Shown: one piece after another, positions 1 to 42,426 of the stretch
Numbering within the stretch: the stretch's first letter is position 1
Layout: each line of letters starts with the position of its first letter
Source: a phage
Sequence record: PZ544694.1
DNA: 56,700 bases
Reading direction: 5' to 3' (one strand)
Notes under the pieces: generated by a model
Told to the model about the DNA's origin: nothing
What the model saw: the letters and a program-made list of their open reading frames with translations, nothing else
Database searches by the model: none
Program-made: the position numbers and the translations under genes

Positions 1-276
1 ATGAGCCGTCCATGCGATGAAACTCTCGCAGTATTAAAACAGCGATATGTTGAAGCGAGCCGAGCATATCACGATTTACAAATCGGGGTGTCTGGCCGAG
101 TGTTTGTCGACCAAAATAGCGAACGTGTTGAATTCACCGCAGCTAACCGTCAGAGTCTACTTGCGTATCTTACCGGGCTACAACGTCAGATTTGTCAGTT
201 AGCCCCGAACGACCCGATCTGTAATTGCGGTGTCGGCTTCGGGTCAATTTCCGCACCACTAGGGGCGTTATTCTAA
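1..276 (+). CDS. head-tail joining protein, lambda gpW-like
   Basis: 91 aa; segment HDLQIGVSGRVFVDQNSERVEFTAANRQSL aligns with lambda gpW ([29 protein letters not shown]); next to portal and terminase ORFs. Confidence 0.6.
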   Translation: MSRPCDETLAVLKQRYVEASRAYHDLQIGVSGRVFVDQNSERVEFTAANRQSLLAYLTGLQRQICQLAPNDPICNCGVGFGSISAPLGALF

Positions 277-1401
277 ATGAAATCAATCAAGGAACTTGTC
301 GCGAGAAGTGCGAACAATCCCCCGGAGGTTAAAGCACAAGGCGGTTATGAGGGTGCTCAGCGAAACTCGCGAGAAATGTATCGCTGGACGCCCGCAATAG
401 TCTCTCCGGATCAGGAATTAGACGGCGGACAAAAAGAATTAGCCGATGCCCGGGTTCAAAACGTTATCCAGAATGACGGTTTTGCGTCCGGTGCCGTATC
501 GATACATCGAGATAATATCGTCGGCTCTCAATACATGCTAAACGCTAAGCCGAATTTGTCCGCGCTAGGACTAAAAGGAGCTGACGCCGAAGCATGGGAG
601 GAGGAGTTTCAAGACGTCGTAGAGTCGAAATTCAACGTGGCTGCGGACTCAACGGAAAACTGGTTTGATGTCACACGACGCAATTCTTTTACCGGCTTGG
701 TTCGCCTCGCGGTGGCCCAAGCACTGATTTCCGGTGAAGTATTGGCATCGGCAGAATGGTCAAGAACCGCAGGTCGTCCTTTCAATACGGCCATTCAAAT
801 GATTAGCCCGCATCGACTGAGCAACCCGAATAACTCGGCCAACACGAAAAACATTCGAGGCGGTGTTCATGTCGATGCGTTCGGACGACCAATCGGGTAC
901 TACATTCAAAACAGTTTCCCGGGAGAGAGTTTAATCAACGGTGAGAATCAAATGTGGCGATATGTTCCATCACGCAAACCGTGGGGACGTCGACAGGTTA
1001 TTCACATCATGGAGCAAATTCTCCCGCACCAAAATCGCGGTATCTCAGACATGGTTGCAGCATTGAAGACCATTAGAATGACTAAGAACTTTCAGGAGAT
1101 AACGCTACAAAACGCGGTAATCAATGCCTCGTATGCAGCCGCAATTGAGTCGGAGCTACCACCGGAAGCCGTTTACGCTCAGTTAGGTTTAGGGCAACGT
1201 CCGTTCGGCGAGATTATCCATGAGATGATGACGAACGCAGCATCGTACTACGCGACTGCTAAAAACATGGAAATAGACGGCGCCAAGATCCCGCATTTAA
1301 TGCCCGGCACTAAGTTGAACTTAAAACCGATGGGGACTCCCGGCGGGATCGGCACGGACTTTGAGGAGTCGTTACTACGCCACATCGCAGCATCGTTATA
1401 A
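277..1401 (+). CDS. portal protein, lambda gpB family (N-terminal ~70 percent only)
   Basis: 374 aa colinear with lambda gpB: SIHRDNIVGS, MISPHRLSNPNN, INASYAAAIESEL, AKIPHLMPG, FEESLLRHIAASL; ends with TAA where homologs continue. Confidence 0.85.
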   Translation: MKSIKELVARSANNPPEVKAQGGYEGAQRNSREMYRWTPAIVSPDQELDGGQKELADARVQNVIQNDGFASGAVSIHRDNIVGSQYMLNAKPNLSALGLKGADAEAWEEEFQDVVESKFNVAADSTENWFDVTRRNSFTGLVRLAVAQALISGEVLASAEWSRTAGRPFNTAIQMISPHRLSNPNNSANTKNIRGGVHVDAFGRPIGYYIQNSFPGESLINGENQMWRYVPSRKPWGRRQVIHIMEQILPHQNRGISDMVAALKTIRMTKNFQEITLQNAVINASYAAAIESELPPEAVYAQLGLGQRPFGEIIHEMMTNAASYYATAKNMEIDGAKIPHLMPGTKLNLKPMGTPGGIGTDFEESLLRHIAASL

Positions 1402-10653: not shown

Positions 10654-10938
10654 ATGAAAGAGAGTAATTTCCCATCGTGGGCGAAGAACAATAAAACGGG
10701 TCGACTTAAATTCATGATCCGGCATTTAGCCAGTTTCGCTTCGGAGGAGGGCCACCTAGTTTTCCTGTGCCGAGACGCTAAACTGTCGGTTCGTGGTGTC
10801 TCACAAGCAATCGACCGAGGAGAATTCACCTTTCAAATGGCGGATAAACTCGTTAAGGCTGCAAGCGTTGCTGGAAACCCGGACGTCACAGTTATGAACC
10901 TATTAAAACCTATGGAATCATTTAAAGAGGACAAATAA
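10654..10938 (+). CDS. hypothetical protein
   Basis: 94 aa frame-1 ORF upstream of primase-helicase; AAGAGGA Shine-Dalgarno-like motif at its 3' end precedes the next ATG. Confidence 0.35.
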   Translation: MKESNFPSWAKNNKTGRLKFMIRHLASFASEEGHLVFLCRDAKLSVRGVSQAIDRGEFTFQMADKLVKAASVAGNPDVTVMNLLKPMESFKEDK

Positions 10939-13614
10939 ATGTCTAACGTTTTCAAATCTCGTGGCCCTGAACTTTTCGACAATGGATACGAAGTCGTACC
11001 TATTACTCGTATCGACGCAACTGACAGCAAAGGGAAATTATTGTCTGGCGCGGGTAAAGCCCCGGCGTTAAAAGGGTGGCAGAAAATAGAGATCACTTCT
11101 GACATCGTTAATGAATGGGCGACGGGTAGTCGCTCTCGCTGTGGTGTGGGTATTCGTACCCACCGTAACCCTGCTGTCGATATCGACTGTTTAGACGCCG
11201 AAGCGTCAGAACACATGACGGCTTTCGTTGAGTCGGAAGTGGGCTTTGCTCCTATCCGTGTTGGGCGTGAACCTAAAGCGCTACTCCTCTATTATACAGA
11301 ACGTCCTTTCACAAAAGTAAAATCAACCATCTTCGTTGATGAAAACGGGAATGAAAACGCTGTCGAGATATTAGGAAGCGGGCAACAATTCGTTGCTTAC
11401 GGTATCCACCCGGGAACTAAGAAACCGTATAAATGGGTTACTAAAGGCGAGTCGCCTGCGGAAAACCAAGCGGATTTTGACCTTGAAGAAATCACACTAG
11501 AAGACGCGAGAAAAATTATTGCGGAATTCGACCGGTATGCGAAAGAGCGCGGTTGGAAACCTTTAAAAAGTAAAAGCGGTACGGTCATCAAGCCATCTTT
11601 GGGCTACTACTTAGATGCTCCGGAAGAACTATCAGACTGGTCGGACGAGTCGGACTTTGACGATGATGAAGACGATTGGGTCACTACTGATGATATCACC
11701 GATAAATGGGACGGTACTTACGAAGAACTTTACGAAATCTTCGAAAATGATATCGAACCATCTTACGATTACCACACTTGGATTCCTGTTCTGGCTGCAC
11801 TTAAAGACGCCGAACGTGAGCCGGACGAGTTTAAAGAGATCGCGAGAATGTGGTCTGCTCGGGCCGAGGAGTCTTTCGATAACGATGCCTTTGAAGATAA
11901 ATGGGAAAACGGTAATTTCAATCGTGTTGGTAAATACGCTAAGACATTACGAGGAGTAATTGCCGAAGCGGAAAAGATCCAAGGCGTTCGCGAAATTGAG
12001 GACGTAGTTATACCTTTATTCGAAAAAGCTACTGACTTGGCCGAGTGGACTTTAGCTGCCGACCGCCTACGTGAAACGTGGGCTTTCGGTTTAGAAAGAG
12101 AGACGGCCATAAACATTGCTTGCGAAAAGTATAAGAAAGTCACTAACGGGTTAAAACTTACGGACGTTCAAAAGAAACGATATCTTAGTATCGATTACTC
12201 TCTCTTTGACGCTCCCGAATGGTTGGCTCCTTGGGTTTATTGTACTACGGATAACGAGTTTATTAACTTAGACAATAGAACCAGAATGAACCCTAAATCT
12301 TTCGCGAATGCCTATAACCGAGAAACTGTGAAGAAATTCGGGGTAGCTGCGGACGTTTTCGCCACGGTTGAAAGACCCGTTCCTGTTATCCACGATACGA
12401 TGTATTACCCGTTGATGCACGGTGAGATGCCTAAGAACAAATGGAAGCGGGTTCCGGGTATTAATGACAAGCGTGTTTTCGAATACAACGGTTTGACGTT
12501 CTTAAATACCTTTGACCATCGTTCCATGCCTGAGACCGCAACAAAAATTTCGACCGCTGGATATAAGGCGATCGGGGAGGTAAAACGATACTTCGAAATA
12601 CAGTATCCAGATCCAGACGAACGAAGACATGCGATGGACTGGATCGCGTGGGTTATCAATAATCCTGTTAGAAAGATTAACTATATGCTTCTCGTTCTTG
12701 GTGGTCAGGGTTCCGGTAAAACCATCGTTAAGAAGTTTATGGAACACATGCTCGGCTCTGATAACGTCTCTACGATTTCGAATAAGGTTATCCATGGTAA
12801 TTTTACCGGGTGGCAGTCTGGTCACATGCTCAAAGTTATTGAGGAAATATCGGTGAGTGGTCATCGCTACGACGTTATGAACTCATTGAAAGAGCCGATA
12901 TCGAATGAAACGTTACAGATCGAAGCGAAGTACCGTGACCCACGCCAGTGTGTGAATACTTCGTCGTATATGGCATTTACCAATGATGTTGGTGCTTTGC
13001 CTCTTACATCAAGTGACCGTCGCTTCTTGTTAGTTCGTAGTGCGTTCCAGCACAAGCGTGAAGTCACTGAATACCTACGGAAAGACCCTAATTACTTTAA
13101 ACGGTTTGAGAAAGCCTTTACTAAACACGCACCGGAGATCCGCAAATGGTTTAGCGAGTGGGAGTATTCCGAGGGCTTCAAACACGATGGTAACGCTCCT
13201 GAAACGGTGAGTATGGGAAGCATGTCTTTAGCGTCAGAAGACGATTTCACCTCCGTAGTAATGGGGGCCGTAGATGATTGTGAGAAAGAGTTAGAATTTA
13301 CATCGGGGATCACAGACGAAGTAATTTTCATTCCATCGGCAGTAGATTTAGTCCGAGATAGGTCTAAGGTTCCTAACGGGAAAATAATATATCGCATACT
13401 CGCTGAATATGGTTTCTTCCGGCCTGTGGATTCTCGTACACAAATAAGATTTAATGACGTAAGAGGACAAGTTGTTGTCGCGAATAGACATAAATGGCTC
13501 TATCCTGATGGGAGTGTCAACGTAGATAAGATTAAAGAGCATTTAGAGGAGAACGAACGCCGGGTAGAAGAACAAGAAAGCAAGAGAGAGTTAGAAGAAA
13601 CTGACGTTTTCTAA
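10939..13614 (+). CDS. DNA primase-polymerase / SF3 helicase (PrimPol N-terminus, D5/P4-type helicase C-terminus)
   Basis: 891 aa; N-terminal GYEVVPI...GKAPALKGWQ PrimPol-like; Walker A LVLGGQGSGKT, Walker B-like region further C-terminal. Confidence 0.7.
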   Translation: MSNVFKSRGPELFDNGYEVVPITRIDATDSKGKLLSGAGKAPALKGWQKIEITSDIVNEWATGSRSRCGVGIRTHRNPAVDIDCLDAEASEHMTAFVESEVGFAPIRVGREPKALLLYYTERPFTKVKSTIFVDENGNENAVEILGSGQQFVAYGIHPGTKKPYKWVTKGESPAENQADFDLEEITLEDARKIIAEFDRYAKERGWKPLKSKSGTVIKPSLGYYLDAPEELSDWSDESDFDDDEDDWVTTDDITDKWDGTYEELYEIFENDIEPSYDYHTWIPVLAALKDAEREPDEFKEIARMWSARAEESFDNDAFEDKWENGNFNRVGKYAKTLRGVIAEAEKIQGVREIEDVVIPLFEKATDLAEWTLAADRLRETWAFGLERETAINIACEKYKKVTNGLKLTDVQKKRYLSIDYSLFDAPEWLAPWVYCTTDNEFINLDNRTRMNPKSFANAYNRETVKKFGVAADVFATVERPVPVIHDTMYYPLMHGEMPKNKWKRVPGINDKRVFEYNGLTFLNTFDHRSMPETATKISTAGYKAIGEVKRYFEIQYPDPDERRHAMDWIAWVINNPVRKINYMLLVLGGQGSGKTIVKKFMEHMLGSDNVSTISNKVIHGNFTGWQSGHMLKVIEEISVSGHRYDVMNSLKEPISNETLQIEAKYRDPRQCVNTSSYMAFTNDVGALPLTSSDRRFLLVRSAFQHKREVTEYLRKDPNYFKRFEKAFTKHAPEIRKWFSEWEYSEGFKHDGNAPETVSMGSMSLASEDDFTSVVMGAVDDCEKELEFTSGITDEVIFIPSAVDLVRDRSKVPNGKIIYRILAEYGFFRPVDSRTQIRFNDVRGQVVVANRHKWLYPDGSVNVDKIKEHLEENERRVEEQESKRELEETDVF

Positions 13615-14030
13615 ATGCACGTTTGGTCAAAAAATGAGCGTACAAAATTTATACAGAAAAACGTTCAATATTTAACCGATTTTCGGGTGATCGGATTTTT
13701 TGAGTGAGTGAATTTCCAATTTTTCATTTTTCCATTTTTTGGTCGAAAAACACCGAAAATGCTGTACAAATTTTATACAGGGTTTTTTGACACAAAGTGT
13801 GTCGGTCATGTGTTCCGACGTGTGCGTGCCAGTTAAATGTTGTACAAAAATCACCCAACACACATGATCGAATTACCTTTATATAGCTTATATATATATT
13901 TTTCTATTTTTCCTTTCCTATCTATTTTTTCTTTCTTCTGGAATTTCTATTTTATTATCTATTACTGTGTTTGCTGTGTCAGAAAGAAAGTAATATAGTT
14001 GCTGTGTCAGAAAGAAAGTAATATAGTAAA
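13615..14030. promoter_or_regulatory. AT-rich repeat-containing region, candidate origin or regulatory region
   Basis: Three copies of AATG-nn-GTACAAA-type motif at 13633-13656, 13757-13780, 13834-13853; T-tracts; 28-bp tandem repeat at 13972-14027; only very short ORFs. Confidence 0.35.
13972..14027. repeat. perfect 28-bp tandem direct repeat x2 (TGCTGTGTCAGAAAGAAAGTAATATAGT)
   Basis: Read directly: copy 1 at 13972-13999, copy 2 at 14000-14027. Confidence 0.9.
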
Positions 14031-14333
14031 AACAATAACTTACCTTGGAACACCTATTGGAACATCAGCCGGCACAGCAATTTCCTGTGACACACCACCA
14101 GCCATGGTAATACCTAAAACGGCGCATAACTATTTGATATTATTACGGAATTACCTAAAATACCGGTCATTACGGTAAATGATGTCCCCTATTGCTAAAG
14201 CCTGTGCGTCGCTCTCCGTGCTTTCTAGAGAAGAATCACTTTTAAATCGAAAAAGGTACTTGGACGAGTTGTCCGGTTGGGCGGGGGTGCGCAGAGCCGT
14301 CTTCCAGAAATTTGTCCGGGATCTGCCATAGAT

Positions 14334-15585: not shown

Positions 15586-15798
15586 ATGGAAATAATCAAC
15601 GCTTGGCCGTTTTGTCTCGGTGTCGTTTTGATGGTGTTAGGGTTCGGCGTGGCTGTCCTGTGTATCGTGGGGACGAACAAAGCGACCCGAAGCGAAACCT
15701 TTGAGAAATTACGCGCTGTAAGTTTAGCCGGAATCACCTTTGTGATGGTGGGCGCGTGTTTCGTCATCTACTCGTCTGTTAGGAGTCAATTATTATGA
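15586..15798 (+). CDS. small membrane protein, hypothetical
   Basis: 70 aa, two hydrophobic helices. Confidence 0.4.
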   Translation: MEIINAWPFCLGVVLMVLGFGVAVLCIVGTNKATRSETFEKLRAVSLAGITFVMVGACFVIYSSVRSQLL

Positions 15799-16488
15799 AT
15801 GATCGTATTAACTGGTTGTACTCAAAACACGTTTGACATGAAGATCCACACTAAAGCGGGCGCCGTTTTCCATACAAATATTAGCTTTGAAGATTTCCGC
15901 ACTAAAGCCAGTGGGGCTTCGTACCACTTGCATAAAATGGGTCATGAACTGGGCGACGTTGAGTCTCTTGGCATGGTTCCGGAAGATAGGTTTAACCGTG
16001 TGCGCTTTTGGGCGCATGGCATGGAAAAGCTGATCGTAGCGCATAATACCGGCTTTCACTCGTTCGACTTTCTCCACGTTGATTTATTGCCGATAAATAC
16101 ACTACTAGGTGAGGTCAAAACGCCGTTAATCATTCCGTCGTTGATTGGTGGCGTGAATCTCGGCACATGGAAAAACGATTGTTATTTAATTACCTCACCC
16201 TTGGCGAAAGATAACGGTAAATCGGTTCTAGTATGTCAAGGGGAGAAAGTTCTAGAGGACGAGGAACTAACGCAATCAGAGCTAGACGCGGGGGAGAACT
16301 TGAACACACTCACCGTATTAACTGACCTGCAAACACTCCGCCAGCCTTACCTAGTCAGCGATGGCGATTTATTTTGCGACCAGTTCGATTCTAGCGTGGG
16401 GATTGTGTTAAACGTTGTCGCGGACACCTACGGGGATATTGTCATTAACCCACACGGAATAGCAAATACTCAATTTATGGATCGCTAG
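15799..16488 (+). CDS. hypothetical protein
   Basis: 229 aa frame-1 ORF; AGGAG upstream; ATGA stop/start duplicated at junction. Confidence 0.5.
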   Translation: MIVLTGCTQNTFDMKIHTKAGAVFHTNISFEDFRTKASGASYHLHKMGHELGDVESLGMVPEDRFNRVRFWAHGMEKLIVAHNTGFHSFDFLHVDLLPINTLLGEVKTPLIIPSLIGGVNLGTWKNDCYLITSPLAKDNGKSVLVCQGEKVLEDEELTQSELDAGENLNTLTVLTDLQTLRQPYLVSDGDLFCDQFDSSVGIVLNVVADTYGDIVINPHGIANTQFMDR

Positions 16489-17289
16489 ATGAAAAAGATT
16501 ACTATCGGTGCTTCAGAACGTGCGGAATTACGTCAAATTTGTAACGTTATCAAAGCTAATCCTACGCACTATGAAACGGTTACTTACACGAATAAAGACG
16601 CGACCGCATCTATCAAAGTTAAATATTCCGCCGGCGAAAAACTAACGTATAAAGCCTTTATCACCGTTATCGTGGGCGAGAAAGTGGCAACCGAAACCGT
16701 AGAAGCCGGAAGTTTTAATATCGTCGAGAACAAGATCCGTGCGTGTGGTTCTGTTGACTACTTGACCGAGTTATCAAATAAAACCGTATCCCTAGATAAA
16801 CCGCTTCACGTATCATTGCGTAAATCAATGCAACCAAGCGCACAGCAACGTAGAGGAATCAAGGAGATGACGCGTAAAGCGGAGAAAGCCGACCCATTGG
16901 ATTTAGTGCTTATGGATAGCCTCTTGATCGTTCGCAAGTCGTTTGGTGTCGTATATCGTGGCCAAGTTCTAAACTTCAAAAGTGCTATAAACAATCAAGG
17001 GGCGATCAAGATTATCGTGTCTATAAATACGATGTTTAATAACGACTTACAATATGTGTGGTCAATGATATACACCCTCGACCGTTTGGCCTACGATATA
17101 CGCAATGGGAACCTCGCCATTCTATCGCATAGTGCGCCGACGAAAGTTTTACGGGTGTACGGTTGGCGCGGTGACTATGAGACTATCGCAGTAAACCAGA
17201 AAGCCCGACTGTCATCAGTGATCGAGAATTTCATGATTGAGGGTGGTTCTCGTCGCATTGAGTTTCGCCCGTTACCTCAAAGAAACTAA
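16489..17289 (+). CDS. hypothetical protein
   Basis: 266 aa frame-1 ORF, no recognised domain. Confidence 0.5.
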   Translation: MKKITIGASERAELRQICNVIKANPTHYETVTYTNKDATASIKVKYSAGEKLTYKAFITVIVGEKVATETVEAGSFNIVENKIRACGSVDYLTELSNKTVSLDKPLHVSLRKSMQPSAQQRRGIKEMTRKAEKADPLDLVLMDSLLIVRKSFGVVYRGQVLNFKSAINNQGAIKIIVSINTMFNNDLQYVWSMIYTLDRLAYDIRNGNLAILSHSAPTKVLRVYGWRGDYETIAVNQKARLSSVIENFMIEGGSRRIEFRPLPQRN

Positions 17290-21255: not shown

Positions 21256-21474
21256 TTGTACTTATCTACAAAAATTTCGGGCTTACTTCAAAAACCTCGC
21301 GGGCCGATGATTTTCTGTGACGATTTAAAAACTTTTCCGGCCGGCTTACTTCAAAAACCTCGCGGGCTGAAAAAATTCCCGTGAGTGAGAAATAAAAACC
21401 GGCCAATGGATTTATCTACAAAAATTAGAACCTTACTTCAAAAACCTCGCCGGTTGACGGAAATCCTCGGGTAA
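21256..21474. repeat. cluster of ~22-bp direct repeats (CTTACTTCAAAAACCTCGCGGGC), candidate regulatory elements
   Basis: Copies at 21282-21304, 21345-21367, 21432-21453 (last with 2 mismatches); TTATCTACAAAAATT at 21262-21276 and 21412-21426. Confidence 0.6.
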
Positions 21475-22539: not shown

Positions 22540-22887
22540 ATGGTAAAGGTCTTATACAACAGCGAACAAGCGCAAGTAAACCAGTTGCGAGACCAGATTA
22601 AATCGCACACTGAGTCGTTTGAAACAGCGATGGCCGAAGTCGACCAGATCATTAAAGAAAATATCGAGACATACCTAAACGATATATCCGGGTTAATGAT
22701 GTCGATAGTTAGAGTGTATGACAACGCGGAGATTGAGGACAAAGCGGTGGCCTTAGATCTTGTTCACTCTAAAGCGGTAACTCGTTTAGCTGCTATCGAA
22801 GATAAGAGCATAGAACTACGCGCCCATATTGAAAACTTAGTATCCACCATTAAAACCGGAGTGATTAAAAACAATGAAACCATTTGA
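22540..22887 (+). CDS. hypothetical protein
   Basis: 115 aa; AGAGGA Shine-Dalgarno-like motif upstream; last 14 nt duplicated as start of next ORF. Confidence 0.45.
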   Translation: MVKVLYNSEQAQVNQLRDQIKSHTESFETAMAEVDQIIKENIETYLNDISGLMMSIVRVYDNAEIEDKAVALDLVHSKAVTRLAAIEDKSIELRAHIENLVSTIKTGVIKNNETI

Positions 22888-23976
22888 ATGAAACCATTTG
22901 ATAAATTTATTGCTTTTGCAATATCTGAACCAGCAGACCCTAACAATACGACTTCGTTTTCCGCATTAGCTAACGGGACAGAAGACCAACTAAAACAACT
23001 AGGCCGAGAACTAGAAACAAGCCTGAGAAACTTACCGATCGGAGACCCAAGCGCTATGCAGTGGACGCGCCACGGTTTTGCTAAACCCGACGAGAACGCC
23101 GAACCGATCACCGTTGTAGATGAAGTCCTAGGGGACATGGAAGACACACCATACGTTATGATAGACGAAGCGGGTAAATATCTTGTGTTCACTTTCGAAG
23201 AACGTGCTCGAATGCTAAGCCCGACAACGATCAAGGACGAATTAGAGGTTAAAGTAAAAGATTGGATAGAACGAGTTGGTGACACCCCGACAAAACGTGA
23301 ACGTAATGATATGCGCGATGAAATCATCAATGACTTGTTGCCAAAGGCCACAATAAAGCGCACCAAGACATACGCCATGATCATCAAGGGTGTTCTTATT
23401 GTCTTCGCCGGTAGCAATAACATCGGTGAAAAAGTAGCATCGGCCGTAAGAAAGGTAGTAGGGTCTCTCCCAGTAGTACCATGGTTTGAGCATTCGGCCC
23501 TCATTACGGAGTTTCTAAAGAAAATCGCTACGGTAGACTTTGACCCGGAAGATGCAGTAGGCCAAGCGCTAGATAAATTTGAGATTGTCCGTAGTGCTAA
23601 AGTCTCCGCTGAAACCGGTGCGTACACTTTCAAAGATGTTTTTGACATCACGAATGACGTTTCCTTCAAAGAAGCGCTAGGACAAACTAACGGATACTCA
23701 TACCCTCTCGGGATCACCGAAGCGAATTTAGAATTACGACATGACGCCACAGACAGCCCTATCGGTTTTGTTCTTACGGCCAAAGGCGTTTTAAAGAGCG
23801 TAAATTGGAATGACGAGCCGGAAAATATTTTCGACGACTCAGTGTTTGACACGAACGAGGAACGGGAGCGTGCTCGATTTATTTTCTCTACGTGGGACGC
23901 TTACACCTTAGTTACGGCCGTGCTAGGAGCGCTACACAACGCAAACGCAAACCGATTTGTAGAAGACGATATGTAA
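22888..23976 (+). CDS. rdgC: recombination-associated protein RdgC-like
   Basis: 362 aa; RNDMRDEIINDLLPKATIKRTKTYAMIIKGVLIVFAGS...VRKVVGSLPVVPW colinear with E. coli RdgC (KDEVLHSLLPRAF...LRKSLGSLPVVP). Confidence 0.7.
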   Translation: MKPFDKFIAFAISEPADPNNTTSFSALANGTEDQLKQLGRELETSLRNLPIGDPSAMQWTRHGFAKPDENAEPITVVDEVLGDMEDTPYVMIDEAGKYLVFTFEERARMLSPTTIKDELEVKVKDWIERVGDTPTKRERNDMRDEIINDLLPKATIKRTKTYAMIIKGVLIVFAGSNNIGEKVASAVRKVVGSLPVVPWFEHSALITEFLKKIATVDFDPEDAVGQALDKFEIVRSAKVSAETGAYTFKDVFDITNDVSFKEALGQTNGYSYPLGITEANLELRHDATDSPIGFVLTAKGVLKSVNWNDEPENIFDDSVFDTNEERERARFIFSTWDAYTLVTAVLGALHNANANRFVEDDM

Positions 23977-24177
23977 ATGAATACAGAACGTAAAAAACTG
24001 GCGTCTAACCTGACAAGACTAAAAGTCGGAGAGTCTTTCTTCGTAGAATGTCTTCCGAAAGACCTAGCCCACGTTCGACGCCTAGCTTATAAGCTGAATA
24101 TTAAGTTATCCATGGTTCGTGTCGATGTCGACCCGATCTACGGTACATTGGGGACGAGGATATCTCGCGTCAAGTAA
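23977..24177 (+). CDS. hypothetical protein
   Basis: 66 aa frame-1 ORF. Confidence 0.3.
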   Translation: MNTERKKLASNLTRLKVGESFFVECLPKDLAHVRRLAYKLNIKLSMVRVDVDPIYGTLGTRISRVK

Positions 24178-24996
24178 ATGATTAAACTTATGCACTATGC
24201 GGATTACGACTACCGCGACCCAAGTAAACATGAACACCGAATATTCCCGGTTCCGGCCGGAATTAGAGTCGGGGTGATCATTAAACGCGTTAAGTCCATC
24301 GCGAACCCAACAAAGATTGAGGTGTGGCAATACGACGAAAAAGGTAACGCGATTACTGACCTTACCGGCTTCGCCCCACACATCGAGGAAATATGTTTAA
24401 AAGCGTACCAATGGCTTACAGAACATACATTATCTCTATCCGGGATCTCTGATACTGAGTCCGATGCGTATGACTCCGGGATCGTAATCGATGGGTATTT
24501 CCAAGATATCCGTCCCAACTATGGAACGGCCGACGAGACATTAGACCAGTTGGAAGAATGGTTATTAGATGAATTCGAGACGACGGACGAAACTAAAACC
24601 ATATTTCAATATCTGGCCGTTACGACCTACGAGTCAGCGCTTCGCGGTAAAGACGGTAAAGACATTCATCTACGCCGTTCTAACCTACGCCATGCGTTGT
24701 GCGCATCGAACAATGCTGACCACACCCGAGCAAATATCTCTGTCTCGGATAATGTGCCACGTTTTACCGTGTGGCCGATGTCTATGTCACCTCGTTCTTG
24801 GGATATGAGCAAGCCCGGCCCGAACGCTTGGGACTCCATGGCGGGCGTCGCAGCACCAAGAGGTCAACAATTCGAAGACCAGTTAAATACATGCTTTGAG
24901 CGCGGTTTTATCGGCGGGCTAGATATGCGAGCGTTTCACGGCTGGAATACAAGAGTTACCGCGTACCAGTTTATTACTGAGGACGCAACGTTATGA
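24178..24996 (+). CDS. hypothetical protein
   Basis: 272 aa frame-1 ORF. Confidence 0.5.
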   Translation: MIKLMHYADYDYRDPSKHEHRIFPVPAGIRVGVIIKRVKSIANPTKIEVWQYDEKGNAITDLTGFAPHIEEICLKAYQWLTEHTLSLSGISDTESDAYDSGIVIDGYFQDIRPNYGTADETLDQLEEWLLDEFETTDETKTIFQYLAVTTYESALRGKDGKDIHLRRSNLRHALCASNNADHTRANISVSDNVPRFTVWPMSMSPRSWDMSKPGPNAWDSMAGVAAPRGQQFEDQLNTCFERGFIGGLDMRAFHGWNTRVTAYQFITEDATL

Positions 24997-25764
24997 ATGA
25001 TTGACGGGGAATTGGATATTATGGCACTACCACAGATTAAAGACTTTGCCGGATACGATGGCCCGTTAGACCACCCGATCATTATGCCTGTTCCGTCCCT
25101 CATGAGGGCGGAAGTCTATGTATCCCACGATTTAAAGGATATAGAAATCAACGGCGTTTTTCGCGACGGAACCTATTCTGCGTCGAGATGGACGGGGTTA
25201 TGCCCGGAATTAGAAGAACAATTTTTATTCCTAGCGGAGTTGTTGAAAGACGACTTTAAGGAAAAATGTATCCTCCCATTTAGAGTTGGTCGAGACAAGT
25301 CCGAACTACGGGAAGTCGATAGATTTATCCCGGGGATCACCGGAAACATCGGTTTTGAAGTGTATTTACATGACACCGGGGATTTCGGCACCAAGTATAC
25401 TCAGAAATACTTAGCCAACAGTAAGATGACGGGAGAGAAAGACGACGGCGGGCTAGTATCCGCCTCGATCGTGAGCGCTTACGGGTTCGGGGAACTAACG
25501 CCAGTTTCGCGCGAGGTAATAGACGTTGTGCGGATTTACGAAAGACGTTATCAGATTAGCCACCGACTCAACCTCATGGACGACGAGGGGTATTTGCTGT
25601 CATTAGCTCCCGGAGAACTGAAACGCGTTGACGCGGTACGAACTGCTGAATTCTATTTCGAACAAGGATACCCCAACGTGATTATTCTCAATTCCGGACG
25701 TCCGTACAACTCCGACGCTACCGGACAAATGTATTACTATTCACCGGAGACATACGACTTATGA
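24997..25764 (+). CDS. hypothetical protein
   Basis: 255 aa; ATGA stop/start duplicated at both junctions. Confidence 0.5.
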   Translation: MIDGELDIMALPQIKDFAGYDGPLDHPIIMPVPSLMRAEVYVSHDLKDIEINGVFRDGTYSASRWTGLCPELEEQFLFLAELLKDDFKEKCILPFRVGRDKSELREVDRFIPGITGNIGFEVYLHDTGDFGTKYTQKYLANSKMTGEKDDGGLVSASIVSAYGFGELTPVSREVIDVVRIYERRYQISHRLNLMDDEGYLLSLAPGELKRVDAVRTAEFYFEQGYPNVIILNSGRPYNSDATGQMYYYSPETYDL

Positions 25765-26211
25765 ATGACCGAGCACAAGAAATTAACCCGCGTGTACGGC
25801 GCTAACCTTTGTACTTTTTGCGGTAGAGCATGGGAAGACGGAGAAGAAATCCCCGATTGCGTTGCGCCCCAAGAGGAGGTTCAAAAAACACGCAAGAAAT
25901 TTTTCCGGGCATACTTCCCGGCGCCAACCCACTTTACCGCATGGTTGTTATATGGGAATAACGGTAAAGCGATGGTCGCCTATGCGGATCATCGGGAGGT
26001 GGCTTTACGCATCGGGTATTATTGGACGAGAAACAGAAAAGATATTGTAAAGGTAGAAGAATCGGCGGAGCTAACCCGTTTTGCTGTTTGGCAATCCGTA
26101 CCCTATATTGAGATTAATCCGGTAATTATTAATAAACTAAACCAGTTAAGCAAAAAAGGGGATAACATAATAATATCTCCCGCTAATTTTAAAAAGGCCA
26201 TTTATGACTAA
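25765..26211 (+). CDS. hypothetical protein
   Basis: 148 aa frame-1 ORF. Confidence 0.45.
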   Translation: MTEHKKLTRVYGANLCTFCGRAWEDGEEIPDCVAPQEEVQKTRKKFFRAYFPAPTHFTAWLLYGNNGKAMVAYADHREVALRIGYYWTRNRKDIVKVEESAELTRFAVWQSVPYIEINPVIINKLNQLSKKGDNIIISPANFKKAIYD

Positions 26212-26844
26212 ATGACTAAGTTAGATGAAGTACGCAAATTATCATACTCGTTCAAACTGCCCGAAGATGTCCGAGAGGGAACCTATGTAGTTTTACGCTT
26301 CGAATCTGAGGTAGGAAAGTGGTATCAGAACGCAAATATTGTTAGCTATATGCTCGGTGTTATCAGCCACACTACTAAGACACAATTCCAAGTTTCTTGT
26401 GAGGGTTTATCCTCCCCGATGCGTTTCGGGCGCGATGGCGGTATCCGCGCAGACAGCAAGGGACAAGTTGGTGGCGCACTAAGAACGTCAGTATTCCTTG
26501 CCGGTAGTGCAGATACCGCAGAAGAATACATCAAGGGCCAAGTAGAACAACACAACGACCCCGAAGTAGTAAGACGCGAGCCAACGTTCCACTTAAAAAA
26601 TGCTGACGATTTGATAGGTATCATCGTCAAGCTGGACAAGCTGATAAACGATGCGACAACGCTATGGGGCGCAATACCTGAAAAATGGAAAGGCCGAGAG
26701 CAACGACGTAGCCGAAACGACCGAATACCGCATGATATGTTAGTAGCGATCTTGTGTAATCCGGACGCATCGGACATATTAGCAGACCTATTTAAGTCCA
26801 TAGCTAAAGCATTCGGAGTATCAACCAAAAAAGAGGAAGAATGA
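26212..26844 (+). CDS. hypothetical protein
   Basis: 210 aa frame-1 ORF. Confidence 0.45.
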   Translation: MTKLDEVRKLSYSFKLPEDVREGTYVVLRFESEVGKWYQNANIVSYMLGVISHTTKTQFQVSCEGLSSPMRFGRDGGIRADSKGQVGGALRTSVFLAGSADTAEEYIKGQVEQHNDPEVVRREPTFHLKNADDLIGIIVKLDKLINDATTLWGAIPEKWKGREQRRSRNDRIPHDMLVAILCNPDASDILADLFKSIAKAFGVSTKKEEE

Positions 26845-27585
26845 ATGATGATCAATCCCTACGCGGTGGAATTACAGAAATTGAAAGACGCCAAGAAACA
26901 CATTCCAAAGCAGATAAAAGACCAATGGCGTACTCCGGACTGGCTTTTCTACGCGCTAAACTCTTTATACGGCCCGTTCTTGGTAGATTTGTTTTCAGAT
27001 GGACAGAATGCTAAGTGCTCCCGGTATTTCATGGCCGAGGATAATGCGCTACAACAGAACTGGAAAGAAGCACTAGAAGACGCCAAGTTTGAATTCCTTA
27101 TCGATGCAGACTGTGCGGGGTACGATGCTACTGACGATCTAAAGACGGCCAAGTGTTTTGCTAACCCGCCATACAGCCCGGCTAAGTATATCGGTAAAGG
27201 GCGTAAGAATAGAATACCGCTCTGTGGTATGCGAAATATCATGGCTAAGGCCTACGAGGAACACAAGGCCGGTTGCCCTTCATTCTGGTTGCTTAAATCC
27301 GCCACGTCAGAAGATTGGTGGCCTAACGAGACCGCAAGCCAGATAATCCACATCAAGGGTAGAATTGCTTTCGAGAAACCGGTGTGGTTTAGAGATGAGG
27401 TCGTAGACCGCGTGGAAAGTAGTGCTGCTTTCGGTGCGTCCGTTGCTATTTTTAACGGAATAAACGATATTCAAGAACCGGAAGCCTACATCAGTCGAGA
27501 TACCTTAAAATTAATAGGGGAGCCACTTGCTGAAATTAATGCGGAAAGACGCGCCGAGTGGATAGCTAGTTTCGACGATCTATAA
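26845..27585 (+). CDS. dam: DNA N6-adenine methyltransferase (phage Dam family)
   Basis: 246 aa; WRTPDWLF...FLVDLFSDGQNAKC and catalytic NPPYS motif. Confidence 0.8.
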   Translation: MMINPYAVELQKLKDAKKHIPKQIKDQWRTPDWLFYALNSLYGPFLVDLFSDGQNAKCSRYFMAEDNALQQNWKEALEDAKFEFLIDADCAGYDATDDLKTAKCFANPPYSPAKYIGKGRKNRIPLCGMRNIMAKAYEEHKAGCPSFWLLKSATSEDWWPNETASQIIHIKGRIAFEKPVWFRDEVVDRVESSAAFGASVAIFNGINDIQEPEAYISRDTLKLIGEPLAEINAERRAEWIASFDDL

Positions 27586-27816: not shown

Positions 27817-28350
27817 ATGGATCATAAGTACAAGGTTTCGGACAGGAATACCGTCGCCCGAGTAGTGGGCCGTCATCGCCAATGGTGCGACGCATACGTT
27901 GAGGTAAAACGTATCGTTCGTGAAATGTCCGAAAAAGGGATAACCGATCTGGAAGTTGACGCGATGCCGATCCACGCGCACCTAAACCGGATTGCTGGTT
28001 TCAACTCATTTTTTGCCAACACTCAAAACGAATGGTGGCTAAGATTTAGACCATTTGAAGCCTACCCACAAGATAACGGGAAGACGCTAATTAAGTACCG
28101 CGACTCCCACCCGTGTAACATCTGGCGAAAAGTAGAAAAGATGGAATTCGACCGAGAAGATTTAGAACGAAGAATAAGTCGTATCGAACAAATATTACAA
28201 GGACAGCCGGAAACAATCGCATACGATAGAAAAGTATTTCGAATTCGTAGAACACAAGAATTATCTCAAACCGGCATGTCAAACCGAAAAGCGAGAAAAA
28301 TCGCATGGGAGGAAGCCGGTAGAGAATTCCCGGGAGAAGACCATGTTTGA
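27817..28350 (+). CDS. hypothetical protein
   Basis: 177 aa frame-1 ORF. Confidence 0.45.
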   Translation: MDHKYKVSDRNTVARVVGRHRQWCDAYVEVKRIVREMSEKGITDLEVDAMPIHAHLNRIAGFNSFFANTQNEWWLRFRPFEAYPQDNGKTLIKYRDSHPCNIWRKVEKMEFDREDLERRISRIEQILQGQPETIAYDRKVFRIRRTQELSQTGMSNRKARKIAWEEAGREFPGEDHV

Positions 28351-28602
28351 ATGTTTGATGAAATACGGAGAATAAAACGGAAATATGAAATGTTGCCTCC
28401 CGGAGATAACATACCTCTGTATGGCGATTTCATTGAGTTTAAGGACGAATTTAACGGAGCAACATATATTGGGGAGGTGTTAGATCACCATTTCAGTTCA
28501 ACACCTCACGATCAAATTTGGAATGTCTTCGTAGACGGCGTGACCATATCTGCGAAACAATCTGAGATAACAAGAGTATACCGACGCAAACGGAGAAAAT
28601 AG
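28351..28602 (+). CDS. hypothetical protein
   Basis: 83 aa; first 8 nt duplicate last 8 nt of upstream ORF. Confidence 0.35.
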   Translation: MFDEIRRIKRKYEMLPPGDNIPLYGDFIEFKDEFNGATYIGEVLDHHFSSTPHDQIWNVFVDGVTISAKQSEITRVYRRKRRK

Positions 28603-29466: not shown

Positions 29467-29931
29467 ATGAAATTAGTATACATAGCTGGCCCATACCGCG
29501 CAGACACCAAAGAGGGCGTGGCTGAAAATATCCGTAAGGCACAAGTAATCGGGCTATCTCTAACCACCAACGGACATACATTAGGGGTATTCCCCGTGAT
29601 CCCTCACATGAATACGGCGCACTTTGAGACCCACACTTTAACCGTATCACAAAAATTCAGCGCTTTTATTGAGCCGGTGCCAGATGAATACTGGCTACAA
29701 GGAACAATGGCATTGATGGAAAAATGCGATGCGGTTTTATTGACGCACCCACAAGCCGGCATAACAAGCAAGGGAACGCGGGCGGAGGTTATGCGCGCTA
29801 TTGAGTTGGGTATTCCTGTTTATGACCACATAAACGGTCTACTATCTGACCTTAGAGACGAATCAACGCCTCTACGAAGTATTAATGTTTTGAATGACAA
29901 GCGAGAATTTCTCGGGGCGGTTGATGAGTGA
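29467..29931 (+). CDS. DUF1937/DUF4406-like protein (nucleoside 2-deoxyribosyltransferase-like fold)
   Basis: 154 aa; N-terminal LVYIAGPYRAD and mid-protein CDAVLL...G pattern. Confidence 0.35.
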   Translation: MKLVYIAGPYRADTKEGVAENIRKAQVIGLSLTTNGHTLGVFPVIPHMNTAHFETHTLTVSQKFSAFIEPVPDEYWLQGTMALMEKCDAVLLTHPQAGITSKGTRAEVMRAIELGIPVYDHINGLLSDLRDESTPLRSINVLNDKREFLGAVDE

Positions 29932-29968
29932 ATGACAAGCGAGAATTTCTCGGGGCGGTTGATGAGTG
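29893..29968. repeat. perfect 38-bp tandem duplication spanning a stop/start junction
   Basis: AATGACAAGCGAGAATTTCTCGGGGCGGTTGATGAGTG at 29893-29930 and 29931-29968; copy 1 is the 3' end of ORF 29467-29931, copy 2 is the 5' end of ORF 29932-30035 in another frame. Confidence 0.9.
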
Positions 29969-30035
29969 ATGTAGCGTACTTAATAGTCGTTGCGATGTGT
30001 GCCTTAGTTATAACACTAGGGATACGGAAATAAAT
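29932..30035 (+). CDS. small single-TM membrane peptide (33 aa), lysis-region candidate
   Basis: MTSENFSGRLMSDVAYLIVVAMCALVITLGIRK; hydrophobic core; below the ORF-track size cut-off, found by reading frame 1. Confidence 0.3.
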
Positions 30036-30147
30036 GCCCCTTTACTTTATTATCAAAACCGGCAAGACCGCTCACCGTCTTCACCACCCCAACCGCACAA
30101 CCTTTGTCCTAGGCAGTTATGAAATAAAACTTGGTCGGCCGTTTTAG

Positions 30148-30402: not shown

Positions 30403-31107
30403 ATGGCGAATTTAAAGCCTAAAGGTATCAGACAAAATAACCCGGGTAACTTGGAGTGGGGATCTCCTTGGCAGGGGCTAGTACCGAAAGCGGAGAGAAC
30501 GTCTCCTCGCTTTTGTGAATTCGTAAATCCGGTTTATGGTATTCGTGCGATCGCAGTAACGTTAATCACGTATTACGATAAGCGCAAATCAAAGAACGGC
30601 TCTCGCATCGACTCCGCGCGTGAAATCGTTGAGCGTTGGGCGCCGGGGTCGGAGAAAGGGAATAATACCAACGTATACGCTAAAAACTTAGCAGACCTAC
30701 TAGGCGTTGGCCCGGACGACGAAGTTATCGATATGCACGACTACGACCAGTTGTTTTTATTGGTGTCAGGCATCATCGGTACAGAAAACGGCTTCAATGG
30801 GCCACTCAAAGGCAAAACGGTAAACACTTGGTATTCTGACGAGACTATCGAAGAAGCCCTCCGTATGGCCGGGGTGACTAAGAAACCGAAAGTCGTTAAT
30901 TCTACTGCAACCGTAGCAGCCGGCACCGCAGCACTAGGCGTCGCTCAGTTGGTTGAGGTCGTCCAGCCGGTCAAGGAGGCGGTACACAATGCCTCGGGAG
31001 ACCTTTCATCTGGCGACTACGCTAGAATCTTCCTCGGCGTCGCCACCGTCGGGATCGGGATTTACCTCGGCTATGTCCGCTACCGTAAATTCAAATTGGG
31101 GCAGTGA
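30403..31107 (+). CDS. hypothetical protein, possible peptidoglycan hydrolase (endolysin candidate) with C-terminal hydrophobic segments
   Basis: 234 aa; N-terminal GIRQNNPGNLEWG; two C-terminal hydrophobic stretches; sits among small membrane proteins. Confidence 0.25.
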   Translation: MANLKPKGIRQNNPGNLEWGSPWQGLVPKAERTSPRFCEFVNPVYGIRAIAVTLITYYDKRKSKNGSRIDSAREIVERWAPGSEKGNNTNVYAKNLADLLGVGPDDEVIDMHDYDQLFLLVSGIIGTENGFNGPLKGKTVNTWYSDETIEEALRMAGVTKKPKVVNSTATVAAGTAALGVAQLVEVVQPVKEAVHNASGDLSSGDYARIFLGVATVGIGIYLGYVRYRKFKLGQ

Positions 31108-31422
31108 ATGGCGGGTAGAGATGGAGGTACGGGAGGCGTTCGCATTGACTTGGCGATCAATATCCCGACTATCCTTTCGCTAATAGCAGCGTTGTGTAGC
31201 GGTATAATGTGGGTTAATAACCAGTTTAGCAATGTTAGAAACGATGTTTTGTTGGTCACGGCTGACGTTAGAGTCCTAGAACAACGAACAACGCAAGCCG
31301 AGCGGGAAATCGCCGATATAAAACATAATACCGCACAACAAATAAACCAGTTTCGAGGTGAAGTTCGCGAAGACCTTAGAGACATTAAAACTAGCGTTCA
31401 AAAACTCGCAGATAAAAAATAG
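31108..31422 (+). CDS. membrane protein with N-terminal TM and coiled coil (i-spanin-like candidate)
   Basis: 104 aa; TM INIPTILSLIAALCSGIMWV then heptad-like charged helix. Confidence 0.3.
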   Translation: MAGRDGGTGGVRIDLAINIPTILSLIAALCSGIMWVNNQFSNVRNDVLLVTADVRVLEQRTTQAEREIADIKHNTAQQINQFRGEVREDLRDIKTSVQKLADKK

Positions 31423-33408
31423 ATGGCAGTCAACGCAAGGAACACTTCGCGGGCTGTCGTTTATCAGATCTTGCCTGACTTTAGGGCAAGGTCTACCCAC
31501 CGGAATGTTCTATATCAGGTCTCCGCGAAACTGCGTTTTCGGTCGCAGCACCGAAACGTGGTCTACCAAATACCGCCATTTCGTGCTAGGTCGGTCGTTT
31601 CTAATATAGTATATAGTACCGATTCAACTGCAAGAACGGTAATTACTGTCCCACAAGCGCTAAACCAAGTTGTCTATAACACGTCGTACCAGTTTGAGAT
31701 TTCAAACAATATCATTGGTGGGGTAATAAATACCGCGACCTATTCATGGGTTGAAGCGTTGCCGATCTCTAAACTTGATGTGAAGTCTTTTACGCAACTG
31801 GTGGTCGTTGGTACGGAATACGACACTACGTCCATGAAGTTTATCGGGCAAAACGTCCACCTCGTAAACCAAGGGCTACCGCAACCCCGCCCGGTCGATA
31901 CATGGTCGAACACGGAGATGGGTTCCGAGGTTATGCTCGTTTGTCAGTCTTTGGATATCGAATATATCCCGAGATCCGGGGTTGACTCTCCTAGCGTTGT
32001 ATCGTTGGTTTCCTACTCATCTCCGATAAAATGGGAGACAAGACCGGCTGACGTCGGTACGGTAACACATTTAGCATCGGTTCCGACGGATTTGTTCGGC
32101 CTCCCTAACTCTTTCACATCTTCCGGGAGTGTCGTTCAATTGTCGTCGTACCCGTCCACACCTCCGGCACGAGTAGGGGTTGAAAACGTCCCTCAGATTG
32201 TCAGTTTAGCCTCGATACCGGTAGGCGATGATCCGACCGTCGGAGTGGAGAAATCGTCTCAGGTTTTCACTCAAGCGATTCTGTCATCGGATTATGTATA
32301 TCCGCAATCCGATACTGATGTCGGCCAAGTTTTATTGTCACAAGTTGAGTCGGTCATTGATGAACTACCGATTTCCCCGGAGGACGTTAGTTCCGTTGTG
32401 TCCTTATCGGCGATTGGGGTCGACGCAACATGGAGTTGGTCAGATATATCTTCACCGTCAGTTAATATTTTGGCCGTACAAGATAGCCCGCAACCTCCGC
32501 TAGAGTCGTACTTCGTTTTAAATGCGGTAGGGTCTGCTACGGTGGCGATGTTATTAGAATCGGACTTCGGGCCGGCACACAAAGACAGTTACACCGAAAC
32601 GTATTCCGTACCGATCCTATCGTTGATGACTGCGCCTAAACGGTTTTACCCGCCTCTTGATAACGTGGTAGAACTTGAGAAAGGAAACCATGTTACTCAA
32701 TACGTTACGTCTACTGCGATGAAACGTGACGACGGTATGCCGATATCTACGGAAGATGTCGCCTCACTATCCATTGTTTCCGGGATAAAATCTCCGATGC
32801 CAACTCCGGACGAAGTTGCGAGGAAAGGCGACTTTATTTCGGGCCTATCGCAACACACCATGGTTACGAGTTCGTTCCCGTCTACGGAAGAACCTCAGAG
32901 TTATGTTGAAACGGGTAGTTTAGCTAAAAATATCGCGGTAACGGCATCGTACCCTGATATTCGTCTACCGATGACAGTTGGCCAAACGGACTTAGTAGCA
33001 TTTAATATCGCTAACTCGGTTGACTACCCGCCGGTGAAATCGTTTTTAATGTATGATTTCGCGGGATTAGTAACACAAAATATCGCGTGTAAGGCTAACT
33101 ATTTGCCCGCAAATACGCTAAACTCCTTATCGTTGACGACACAAACTTCGGCTAACGTTGCGTTCTCGGCCAGATACCCTGATAAAAGTACGGTTTATTC
33201 GCGAATTAATTCCGCTCAGGTTTCATCTTCGCTGGCAACGGTAGCTGAGTACCCGGATAAAGACTCAGTTCTTTCAGACATAAAGTCTACGTCCGTGTAT
33301 CAAAATGTTGTGCGCGTCGATTCTTCGTTATATCACATGCCACACCCACCGCAGAGACATCGCGTTAGGATCGTGTGTAAGATGATATATGGATATAAGA
33401 ACCGATAA
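31423..33408 (+). CDS. putative tail fiber / structural protein with internal repeats
   Basis: 661 aa; N-terminal RNVLYQV / RNVVYQI / SNIVYS repeats; recurring (S/E/R/D)YP(D/S/Q) motifs; Ser/Val-rich. Confidence 0.45.
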   Translation: MAVNARNTSRAVVYQILPDFRARSTHRNVLYQVSAKLRFRSQHRNVVYQIPPFRARSVVSNIVYSTDSTARTVITVPQALNQVVYNTSYQFEISNNIIGGVINTATYSWVEALPISKLDVKSFTQLVVVGTEYDTTSMKFIGQNVHLVNQGLPQPRPVDTWSNTEMGSEVMLVCQSLDIEYIPRSGVDSPSVVSLVSYSSPIKWETRPADVGTVTHLASVPTDLFGLPNSFTSSGSVVQLSSYPSTPPARVGVENVPQIVSLASIPVGDDPTVGVEKSSQVFTQAILSSDYVYPQSDTDVGQVLLSQVESVIDELPISPEDVSSVVSLSAIGVDATWSWSDISSPSVNILAVQDSPQPPLESYFVLNAVGSATVAMLLESDFGPAHKDSYTETYSVPILSLMTAPKRFYPPLDNVVELEKGNHVTQYVTSTAMKRDDGMPISTEDVASLSIVSGIKSPMPTPDEVARKGDFISGLSQHTMVTSSFPSTEEPQSYVETGSLAKNIAVTASYPDIRLPMTVGQTDLVAFNIANSVDYPPVKSFLMYDFAGLVTQNIACKANYLPANTLNSLSLTTQTSANVAFSARYPDKSTVYSRINSAQVSSSLATVAEYPDKDSVLSDIKSTSVYQNVVRVDSSLYHMPHPPQRHRVRIVCKMIYGYKNR

Positions 33409-41600: not shown

Positions 41601-42426
41601 TCTCGCAGCAGAAATCCAGCCTAAAGACGTGGTAAACAAACAACTGGAAGTGAAACTACGCGCGGATAGACCATATCCACCGGGGTTCTTGCTCGGCAAC
41701 GGTGAGCACTTTTTCAAAGGGTGGGACGCACTGGCCGATAACTTTGACTACTATGACCCGCAAGGCAAAGACTTAGTGATGACGTGGGCGCACCGTAACC
41801 GAGTTCGTCAAGGGGAAACCGTGTTAGACCATCTTGATGTGGGACAACAACGGCCAAGCGACGTAATGTATCGAGTGTGGATCGGGAAACGATATACTCC
41901 TAGATACAGCAATCGCACAGTTACTATCACCATGGGGACGTATTATACTCGCGACGCAGGAATGACGATCAAGGCCGAAGACTTACACGCGTTCGGCAGA
42001 CGAGTAGGGATCTTGACGGAATCCACCGGCTACGTCTATGTTTCGATCACGGTATCCGCTGTCGATGAAAACGAGCTTAGTAGCTGGCAAGGATATAATA
42101 CTCAGTGTAAAGTACCCTCAATTCCGGCCAAGCGAGATGTTGACCCCAATCCGGGAAGACCTGACCCGGGAACTGGCGGTGGCGAAACTGGCGGTGGCGG
42201 AACTGGCGGTGGTACGAACCCCGGCAATCCAGATCCGGGTCAGCCTGATAGACCGAACCCCGACCCCGACCCGGGCAACCCTGATCCAGAACCTAATCCG
42301 GGCAACCCTGACCCTGATCCGGTCGAGCCTCCGCCACCGTTGGTTGTTGCCGGTTGGTCAAACAAGTGGGATCATGATTGGGCGGAACGACTACCAGACC
42401 AAGACGTCAAAGAGGATACTGAATAA
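38647..42426 (+). CDS. host specificity / central tail fiber protein (lambda gpJ-like) with Gly/Pro-rich C-terminal tract
   Basis: 1259 aa; region GISRDLLFDSEF...GFGICIAWRRQDTLESFIQNI colinear with lambda J (GMGKRLGAADVDKW...); C-terminal PNPGRPDPGTGGGETGGGG... at about 42145-42345. Confidence 0.6.
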   Translation: MGLHMGIGRGPIDELMEIEVGGRTAWRGSVKESSFFRIRAENLFGGKKAEGGIEGGFELYMGDKDQVVSDKLKSMLGGGSQPEFRGVATGYFDGLVSAMNPYPKAWRFKIRRILKGWDGGVWYPEKAVIELTGHDDEGKEYPIKAMNPAHVIYECMTNRDWGRGISRDLLFDSEFRKVADTLFEEGFGICIAWRRQDTLESFIQNILNHISGVLYVDKFTGTFKLKLLRNDYDADNLPVYGFESGLLQIEEATNGAIHGLMNECVVKWFNPIVGKESQVRAQNLALIQTSGAIKSDTFTYEGVPTAKLATIIAERDLRVASTNVRRFTLVCDRRAWRVQPGDVLKISDPKTRGLESVIVRVADTEESKQSDGQIRLSCVQDTFSFDLNTFTGVQDPSFPKPNLNPVPARRLVYEATYAELSSLFPLGEFEAIKPSFGYLRAQAEKGSPVTMAFEMHVQNPTTGKYEKTGAGDFTALFELPVDLGYLDRYIRMKDPVDEDLIEVGDVFYVNQEIIMIQSIEEDGLVEIRRGVYDTVPHQHPAGSVVWDMVQGGGLDLTTRQAGETLSVKILPWTLSGGVLDESNVSEDELTFNYRFYRPYAPGKVELTSVESTEPNPWFNGHVLRADVGEAEVPDALTITWAHRDRPMQQDKPIYHEQDSIGPEPGTTYRISILNAKGEVIRRENGITGTQFVYTYGQASLDLNVEASAIDPVAGYLRLESMRDGFESWQNYLIPITVFKKPPQMAYVSFLNQSVAQVSDKIDPEDKDGETAVDAKAMVSFVNQSVAQESEDLSSGGGGLPDGVNVSYVRQPVSQQGKLVPIVDSQLFEFPYLMLLRHGFEPSASQFFATVARPSDRVTDGYDLFEKEKNDTEYVNQGAQPWTPWGILSKAISYLDNEIILDATSDSDGVPTEDAMPGDVIFVGAEAMVIRGIDGKRITVGRGCVDTIPALHGKGQVVWFVDKQIASGQRKYHDGQTCVVAVRPHSLAAEIQPKDVVNKQLEVKLRADRPYPPGFLLGNGEHFFKGWDALADNFDYYDPQGKDLVMTWAHRNRVRQGETVLDHLDVGQQRPSDVMYRVWIGKRYTPRYSNRTVTITMGTYYTRDAGMTIKAEDLHAFGRRVGILTESTGYVYVSITVSAVDENELSSWQGYNTQCKVPSIPAKRDVDPNPGRPDPGTGGGETGGGGTGGGTNPGNPDPGQPDRPNPDPDPGNPDPEPNPGNPDPDPVEPPPPLVVAGWSNKWDHDWAERLPDQDVKEDTE

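Follow-up and report, generated by a model that had tools for sequence, protein, structure and literature searches.

The sequence record PZ544694.1 carries perfect tandem repeats exactly where one open reading frame (ORF) stops and the next one starts, the longest of them a 38-nt doublet behind a nucleoside 2-deoxyribosyltransferase gene. This raises the question of whether such repeats belong to a phage or to the way in which the sequence was produced. We analysed the whole stretch of 56,700 nucleotides, referred to here as the window. The initial annotation had listed seven exact duplicates, and proposed that they are not biological tandem repeats and arise when overlapping genes are each copied out in full and joined. 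The mapping of the window onto its source genome and the balance of lengths, both described below, agree with that proposal. The junction repeats are a data-processing artefact from the joining of gene sequences, with no biological meaning of their own, and the artefact reaches well past the junctions, as the entire window is a gene concatenate. We put the probability that the window is a computed sequence, in which the predicted genes of Escherichia phage E21 were written out and joined, and not a natural genome, at about 98%.

Reading in frame from base 1, with a restart after each stop codon, resolves the window into 85 abutting ORFs, all on the plus strand and all in frame 1, an arrangement that identifies a concatenate and that holds for every one of the 85 segments. 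Each ORF opens with ATG, GTG or TTG right behind the preceding stop, the final stop falls on base 56700, and the 85 tiled segments leave no intergenic base at all. A stop codon is followed immediately by ATG, GTG or TTG in 84 of 84 cases in frame 1, compared with 65 of 1248 in frame 2 and 26 of 1406 in frame 3. We know of no natural genome with such gap-free tiling in a single frame.

A megablast search of phage records points to E21 (MN604053.1 = NC_052983.1; 58,536 bp; Casjensviridae, Lavrentievavirus), which matches in many separate pieces with 99.0-100% identity. By exact string matching, 83 of the 85 segments are placed on E21 at 100% identity and in ascending record order; 29 of the segments lie on the plus strand of E21 and 56 on the minus strand, each having been turned to its coding orientation in the window. 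The two remaining segments are also exact copies of the source, except for three added bases each. They are the two pieces of the portal gene, which is cut at the origin of the circular E21 record, and they lie 54.8 kb apart at opposite ends of the window, one with an appended TAA and the other with a prepended ATG (Table 1). The lengths balance to the base: from the 58,536 bases of E21, subtracting 2,123 that are in no predicted gene and adding 281 that are in two predicted genes and the 6 added bases gives 56,700. Within window positions 1-1401, the first two segments are swapped (E21 1128-1403 stands ahead of E21 1-1122), while the rest keep the record order; sorting by left end, 5' end or 3' end does not reproduce this swapped first pair.

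These observations point to one course of events. A gene caller was run on the 58,536-bp E21 record and returned 85 coding sequences (CDSs). Each CDS was written out whole in its coding orientation and appended to the one before it, following the record, with the intergenic DNA dropped. Bases common to two neighbouring plus-strand genes belong to both extracts and thus appear twice in a row, giving a repeat as long as the overlap. For an overlapping minus-strand pair, flipping gene by gene in the kept record order moves the two copies outward, to either end of the joined pair. The portal gene, cut by the record start, yielded two partial genes that were made to look complete by the added TAA and ATG. 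The source genome, the exact mapping, the length balance, the link between overlaps and duplicates and the two patches are shown directly, and we infer that the operation was automated, and likewise the choice of gene caller. The window holds a call set of 85 genes versus 64 CDSs in the deposited E21 annotation, and therefore a different gene caller was used. Its many small ORFs, use of TTG starts, preference for longest-ORF starts and scarcity of gaps may resemble the style of PHANOTATE. The gene calls on record for the E21 genome are the 64 deposited ones only, and the extra small ORFs are absent from the public gene collection. Nothing in the evidence contradicts concatenation.

Table 1. 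Positions of junction duplicates, added bases and associated segments in the window and in the E21 genome
Feature	Window position	Strand	Description
Whole window	1-56700	+	85 predicted CDSs of Escherichia phage E21, head to tail, zero spacers
Portal 5' part + TAA	277-1401 (277-1398 = E21 1122..1)	E21 minus strand	TAA absent from genome
Appended TAA	1399-1401	+	Foreign to E21 genome; end of portal 5' part
41-nt minus/minus overlap	4054-4094, twin 5825-5865	+	Dispersed pair, two minus-strand genes
ATGA x2	10650-10657	+	Natural 4-nt start/stop overlap; newly listed here
GTGA x2	13704-13711, 21381-21388	+	Natural 4-nt start/stop overlaps; newly listed here
28 nt x2	13971-14026	+	Natural 28-nt overlap E21 14212-14239; newly listed here
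ATGA x2 ATGAATGA	15795-15802	+	Joins two minus-strand genes, E21 15972-16184 and 16198-16887, non-overlapping
7 nt x2 ATGGTAA	22533-22546	+	Natural overlap E21 23835-23841; single copy in Q29; newly listed here
14 nt x2 ATGAAACCATTTGA	22874-22901	+	Natural 14-nt overlap E21 24169-24182; single copy in Q29
ATGA x2	24993-25000, 25761-25768, 26841-26848	+	Natural 4-nt start/stop overlap each
8 nt x2 ATGACTAA	26204-26219	+	Natural overlap E21 27545-27552; single copy in Q29; newly listed here
8 nt x2 ATGTTTGA	28343-28358	+	Natural 8-nt overlap E21 29742-29749; single copy in Q29
38 nt, copy 1	29894-29931	+	3' end of nucleoside 2-deoxyribosyltransferase CDS (window 29467-29931 = E21 30861-31325)
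38 nt, copy 2	29932-29969	+	5' end of predicted 33-aa hydrophobic ORF (window 29932-30033 = E21 31288-31389)
37-aa ORF call	30034-30147 (E21 31402-31515)	+	Starts within loop of terminator-like hairpin E21 31392-31410
Prepended ATG	56182-56184	+	Foreign to E21 genome; front of portal 3' part
ATG + portal 3' part	56182-56700 (56185-56700 = E21 58536..58021)	E21 minus strand	ATG absent from genome

The natural overlaps of E21 reappear as duplicates in the window. The 12 overlaps of at least 4 nt between plus-strand neighbours match 12 tandem duplicates of equal length, one to one (in order: 4, 4, 28, 4, 7, 14, 4, 4, 8, 4, 8 and 38 nt), and a 1-nt plus/plus overlap matches a single repeated base in the window. 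When each of these 12 duplicates is collapsed to one copy, as the initial annotation had proposed as a check, both ORFs stay intact and the E21 sequence is regained base for base. None of the 12 overlap lengths is divisible by 3, and the partner genes therefore lie in different frames in nature; in E21, the second gene of each predicted pair starts within the 3'-terminal bases of the first, in another frame of the same strand. All seven duplicates of the initial annotation proved exact on sequence comparison, and Tandem Repeats Finder reports the three longer ones as arrays of 100% identity (38-nt, 29891-29969; 14-nt, 22873-22901; 8-nt, 28343-28358). The coordinates given earlier for the 38-nt doublet still describe an exact repeat, but the register of the ORFs lies one base further to the right. 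The earlier list was also incomplete, as the window holds six further tandem duplicates and 12 dispersed ones of at least 4 nt, up to 41 nt long.

The dispersed duplicates stem from the minus strand. All 17 overlaps between minus-strand genes (12 of them pairs of at least 4 nt, up to 41 nt) are present as dispersed copies at the predicted positions, one copy opening segment n and the other closing segment n+1. They are never tandem, because once each gene is flipped with record order kept, the upstream gene comes to stand behind the downstream one. The longest of these pairs is presumably the source of the "41 nt" with which the initial annotation closed its range of duplicate lengths.

Could the same construction have been intended? 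One reading is that the window is a purposeful template for a fully decompressed, one-directional, intergenic-free E21, prepared for synthesis or design, which we regard as very unlikely. Still less likely, in our view, is that it is the genome of a deliberately decompressed or refactored synthetic phage, in which the bases common to two genes were given to each of them to undo the overlap, as in phiX174 and T7. Decompression does produce precisely such overlap duplication, and the added ATG and TAA would fit purposeful editing; however, all 2,123 intergenic bases are lost, the terminator-like hairpin at E21 31392-31410 is halved, and the natural 20 nt upstream are retained for only 1 of 84 genes. 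Moreover, the 56 minus-strand genes are flipped singly, such that their order along the new strand reverses the order of transcription, the essential portal gene is left in two distant pieces, the o-spanin gene is destroyed with an antisense ORF put in its place, and both copies of each overlap are 100% identical. With its regulatory DNA lost, its genes flipped, its portal split and its o-spanin broken, the molecule could not work as a phage.

Another possibility is that the short ATGA and GTGA doublets arose by chance, since (A/G)TGA is a common gene end and ATGA a common gene start. Seven segments end in ATGA and 31 of the 85 start with it, and when the 85 segments were shuffled at random 2000 times, 2.9 +/- 1.4 junctions on average carried a tandem duplicate of at least 4 nt. 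The window has 13 such junctions among its 84, a number above the maximum of 9 in any shuffle, and the pattern is thus far above chance. Of the seven 4-nt doublets, six correspond to a real E21 overlap of 4 nt between the two genes in question, and this mapping refutes chance as a general explanation, leaving it hardly tenable. Chance does hold for one junction, the doublet ATGAATGA at 15795-15802. The genes that meet there are 13 nt apart in E21, and the 3' end of one has been joined to the 5' end of the other, ends that are not natural neighbours. Its first ATGA stems from segments 24 and 25, which truly overlap by 4 nt, while the second is the ATG plus A that opens segment 26; the doublet is a chance match and not an overlap of the two ORFs meeting there. 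The proposal of the initial annotation that gene overlaps were written twice, with the first copy ending one ORF and the second beginning the next in a different natural frame, is therefore correct for six of its seven listed duplicates, and fails at this one.

Natural relatives bear on the junctions in the same way. With 194 nt across the 38-nt repeat as query, matches were obtained in 27 natural phage records (E21 and 26 others), and in all 27 the matching span is 156 (or 154) nt, equivalent to one copy; a seven-genome alignment is likewise single-copy at this junction. In the record of Salmonella phage SD-11_S17, the annotation gives this gene pair the same 38-nt overlap and the DNA is single-copy, and Proteus phage Q29 is single-copy, not tandem, at all eight other junctions tested. 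Thus, the comparison with related genomes that the initial annotation had suggested supports its reading. The tandem form of the 38-nt junction gave no match in IMG/VR with an exact 35-mer and none in metagenome contigs with a degenerate 31-mer, while the single-copy junction, used as a positive control, found one match in IMG/VR, on a contig of 58,536 bp. A genuine repeat within the same window served as a further control: an exact 14-nt doublet, GCGACGGAGGAAGT (window 51560-51587), near the 3' end of the major tail protein gene has the same length in 28 relatives, and it is therefore ancient and in frame as it stands. Genuine biological tandem duplication at gene ends, for instance by replication slippage or illegitimate recombination, deserves practically no weight: the copies are perfect and head to tail, as expected of recent events, but this explanation is refuted by the single-copy state of E21 and its relatives, and the repeats are confined to ORF junctions with lengths equal to the natural overlaps, in a window wholly without intergenic DNA, and behave differently from the conserved tail repeat.

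Two other in-gene tandem repeats of the window lie inside exact E21 segments and are natural, one of 24 nt x3.1 (9954-10028) in a hypothetical protein gene and one of 15 nt x2.8 (42171-42212) in a large tail protein gene. Among the relatives, the Q29 record (OM962992.1) is colinear with E21 except for two adjoining gene-sized blocks, 10033-10740 and 10748-11092, each of which is reverse-complemented in place. These blocks are the endolysin gene and the next lysis gene, and their flanks are colinear; they look like gene-wise editing or an assembly artefact in the public record. Near-identical genomes (about 95-99% identity to these Proteus phages) are filed as Enterococcus phage AS-M1_NWU, Staphylococcus phage SVV09-A and Pseudomonas phage E21. 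For a single genus of viruses such host labels are implausible, and contamination or mislabelling may lie behind them.

In nature, a pair of genes lies beneath the 38-nt repeat. The upstream gene is annotated in RefSeq as a nucleoside 2-deoxyribosyltransferase, and the downstream ORF encodes a hydrophobic product of 33 aa, MTSENFSGRLMSDVAYLIVVAMCALVITLGIRK, behind which lie the terminator-like hairpin (E21 31392-31410) and then a convergent spanin/endolysin cassette. Every Lavrentievavirus genome examined has this ORF intact. In Providencia phage Kokobel1, a 23-aa counterpart, MNDIAIWSIILLWALIFILGLRK, aligns with the E21 product from Met11 on; its ATG shares 1 nt with the transferase stop, and no upstream extension is possible. 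At the same place, Klebsiella phage Seifer has an annotated 66-aa "signal peptide containing protein" that starts with MLNDIMLAVVW; this gene has a ribosome binding site of its own, and a terminator lies behind it. Among close relatives, codons 1-10 of the 33-aa ORF are about 95-100% identical, and this stretch also codes for the C-terminus of the transferase. Judging from these alignments, the 33-aa call probably represents a real gene whose start is at E21 31318 (Met11, window 29962), and the natural overlap is likely 8 nt, ATGAGTGA, rather than 38 nt. The length of the 38-nt duplicate would then be due to the gene caller having taken the longest ORF, probably an over-long start call.

The small hydrophobic ORF from this start (window 29962-30033 = E21 31318-31389; L012 616-687; L014 1333-1533) lies between the transferase gene and the terminator hairpin. 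Both its position and its N-terminal sequence (M-(L)-N/S-D-I/V...) are conserved in Lavrentievavirus, Kokobelvirus and Yonseivirus. Most records leave it unannotated, and it is absent in Chivirus FSL SP-088, PSTCR9 and JS26. It is probably a real membrane-peptide gene, mostly unannotated, that is common to three genera of Casjensviridae. The following 37-aa ORF call is antisense to a gene annotated as o-spanin in phage DanisaurMW (E21 31421-31603, minus strand) and is probably spurious. The o-spanin itself was missed by the gene caller, and it is broken in the window by the loss of 59 intergenic bases. The 33-aa and 37-aa products were looked up in the public gene collection and are not on record there.

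Elsewhere in the window, positions 49711-50418 (E21 51318-52021, minus strand) show an arrangement resembling that of tail assembly chaperones. A -1 frame is open from E21 51683 to 51318, overlapping the 3' end of a G-like gene, and the motif AAGAAAAAG occurs just before the G-like stop, which suggests a G/GT programmed -1 frameshift at this motif. The window cuts this region into a 52-aa piece and a 31-aa piece, the latter probably spurious.

These findings are a matter of data hygiene only. Signals of repeats, operons, promoters, terminators, strand bias or gene order that are taken from the window reflect its assembly and not phage biology, and any other findings from the window should be judged on the natural E21 genome (MN604053.1 / NC_052983.1). 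The combination of junction duplicates, a single frame and zero spacers provides a quick test for spotting such concatenates elsewhere.

The duplication of overlaps has precedents in phage engineering. In the refactored T7.1 of Chan, Kosuri and Endy (2005), overlapping genes were reportedly separated by duplication of their shared bases. Decompressed phiX174 (Jaschke et al. 2012) is described as having its shared bases duplicated, making each overlapping gene a free-standing module (10.1101/2020.06.10.143693). The window has the separation of overlaps by duplication in common with these refactored genomes, but differs from them in most other respects. The phiX174 and T7.1 designs kept promoters, ribosome binding sites, terminators, gene order and strand, whereas the window keeps no regulatory or intergenic DNA and retains neither the order nor the strand of its genes. 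Similarly, legacy start codons were recoded in those designs and the phages were viable, whereas the window departs from the design rule of the phiX174 work (10.1101/2020.06.10.143693) in that its overlap copies are 100% identical, and it has single-gene flips and a split portal gene.

The biology beneath the duplicates is that of the natural start/stop overlaps of tailed phages (ATGA, 8 nt and 14 nt, out of frame). Short overlaps of this kind are commonly tied to translational coupling, and the 281 bases that E21 has in common between two predicted genes are mostly short out-of-frame overlaps of same-strand neighbours. In nature each overlap exists as one copy, and the tandem form exists in the derived window sequence alone. 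The window also resembles a concatenated CDS FASTA, in which the nucleotide output of a gene caller is written as one string: there too the spacers are zero, every gene is in coding orientation and in one frame, overlaps appear twice, and a gene interrupted where a linear record ends comes out as separate pieces. Unlike in the window, plain joining adds no ATG or TAA to the portal pieces and does not swap the first two genes; an extra scripted step was applied here beyond plain concatenation.
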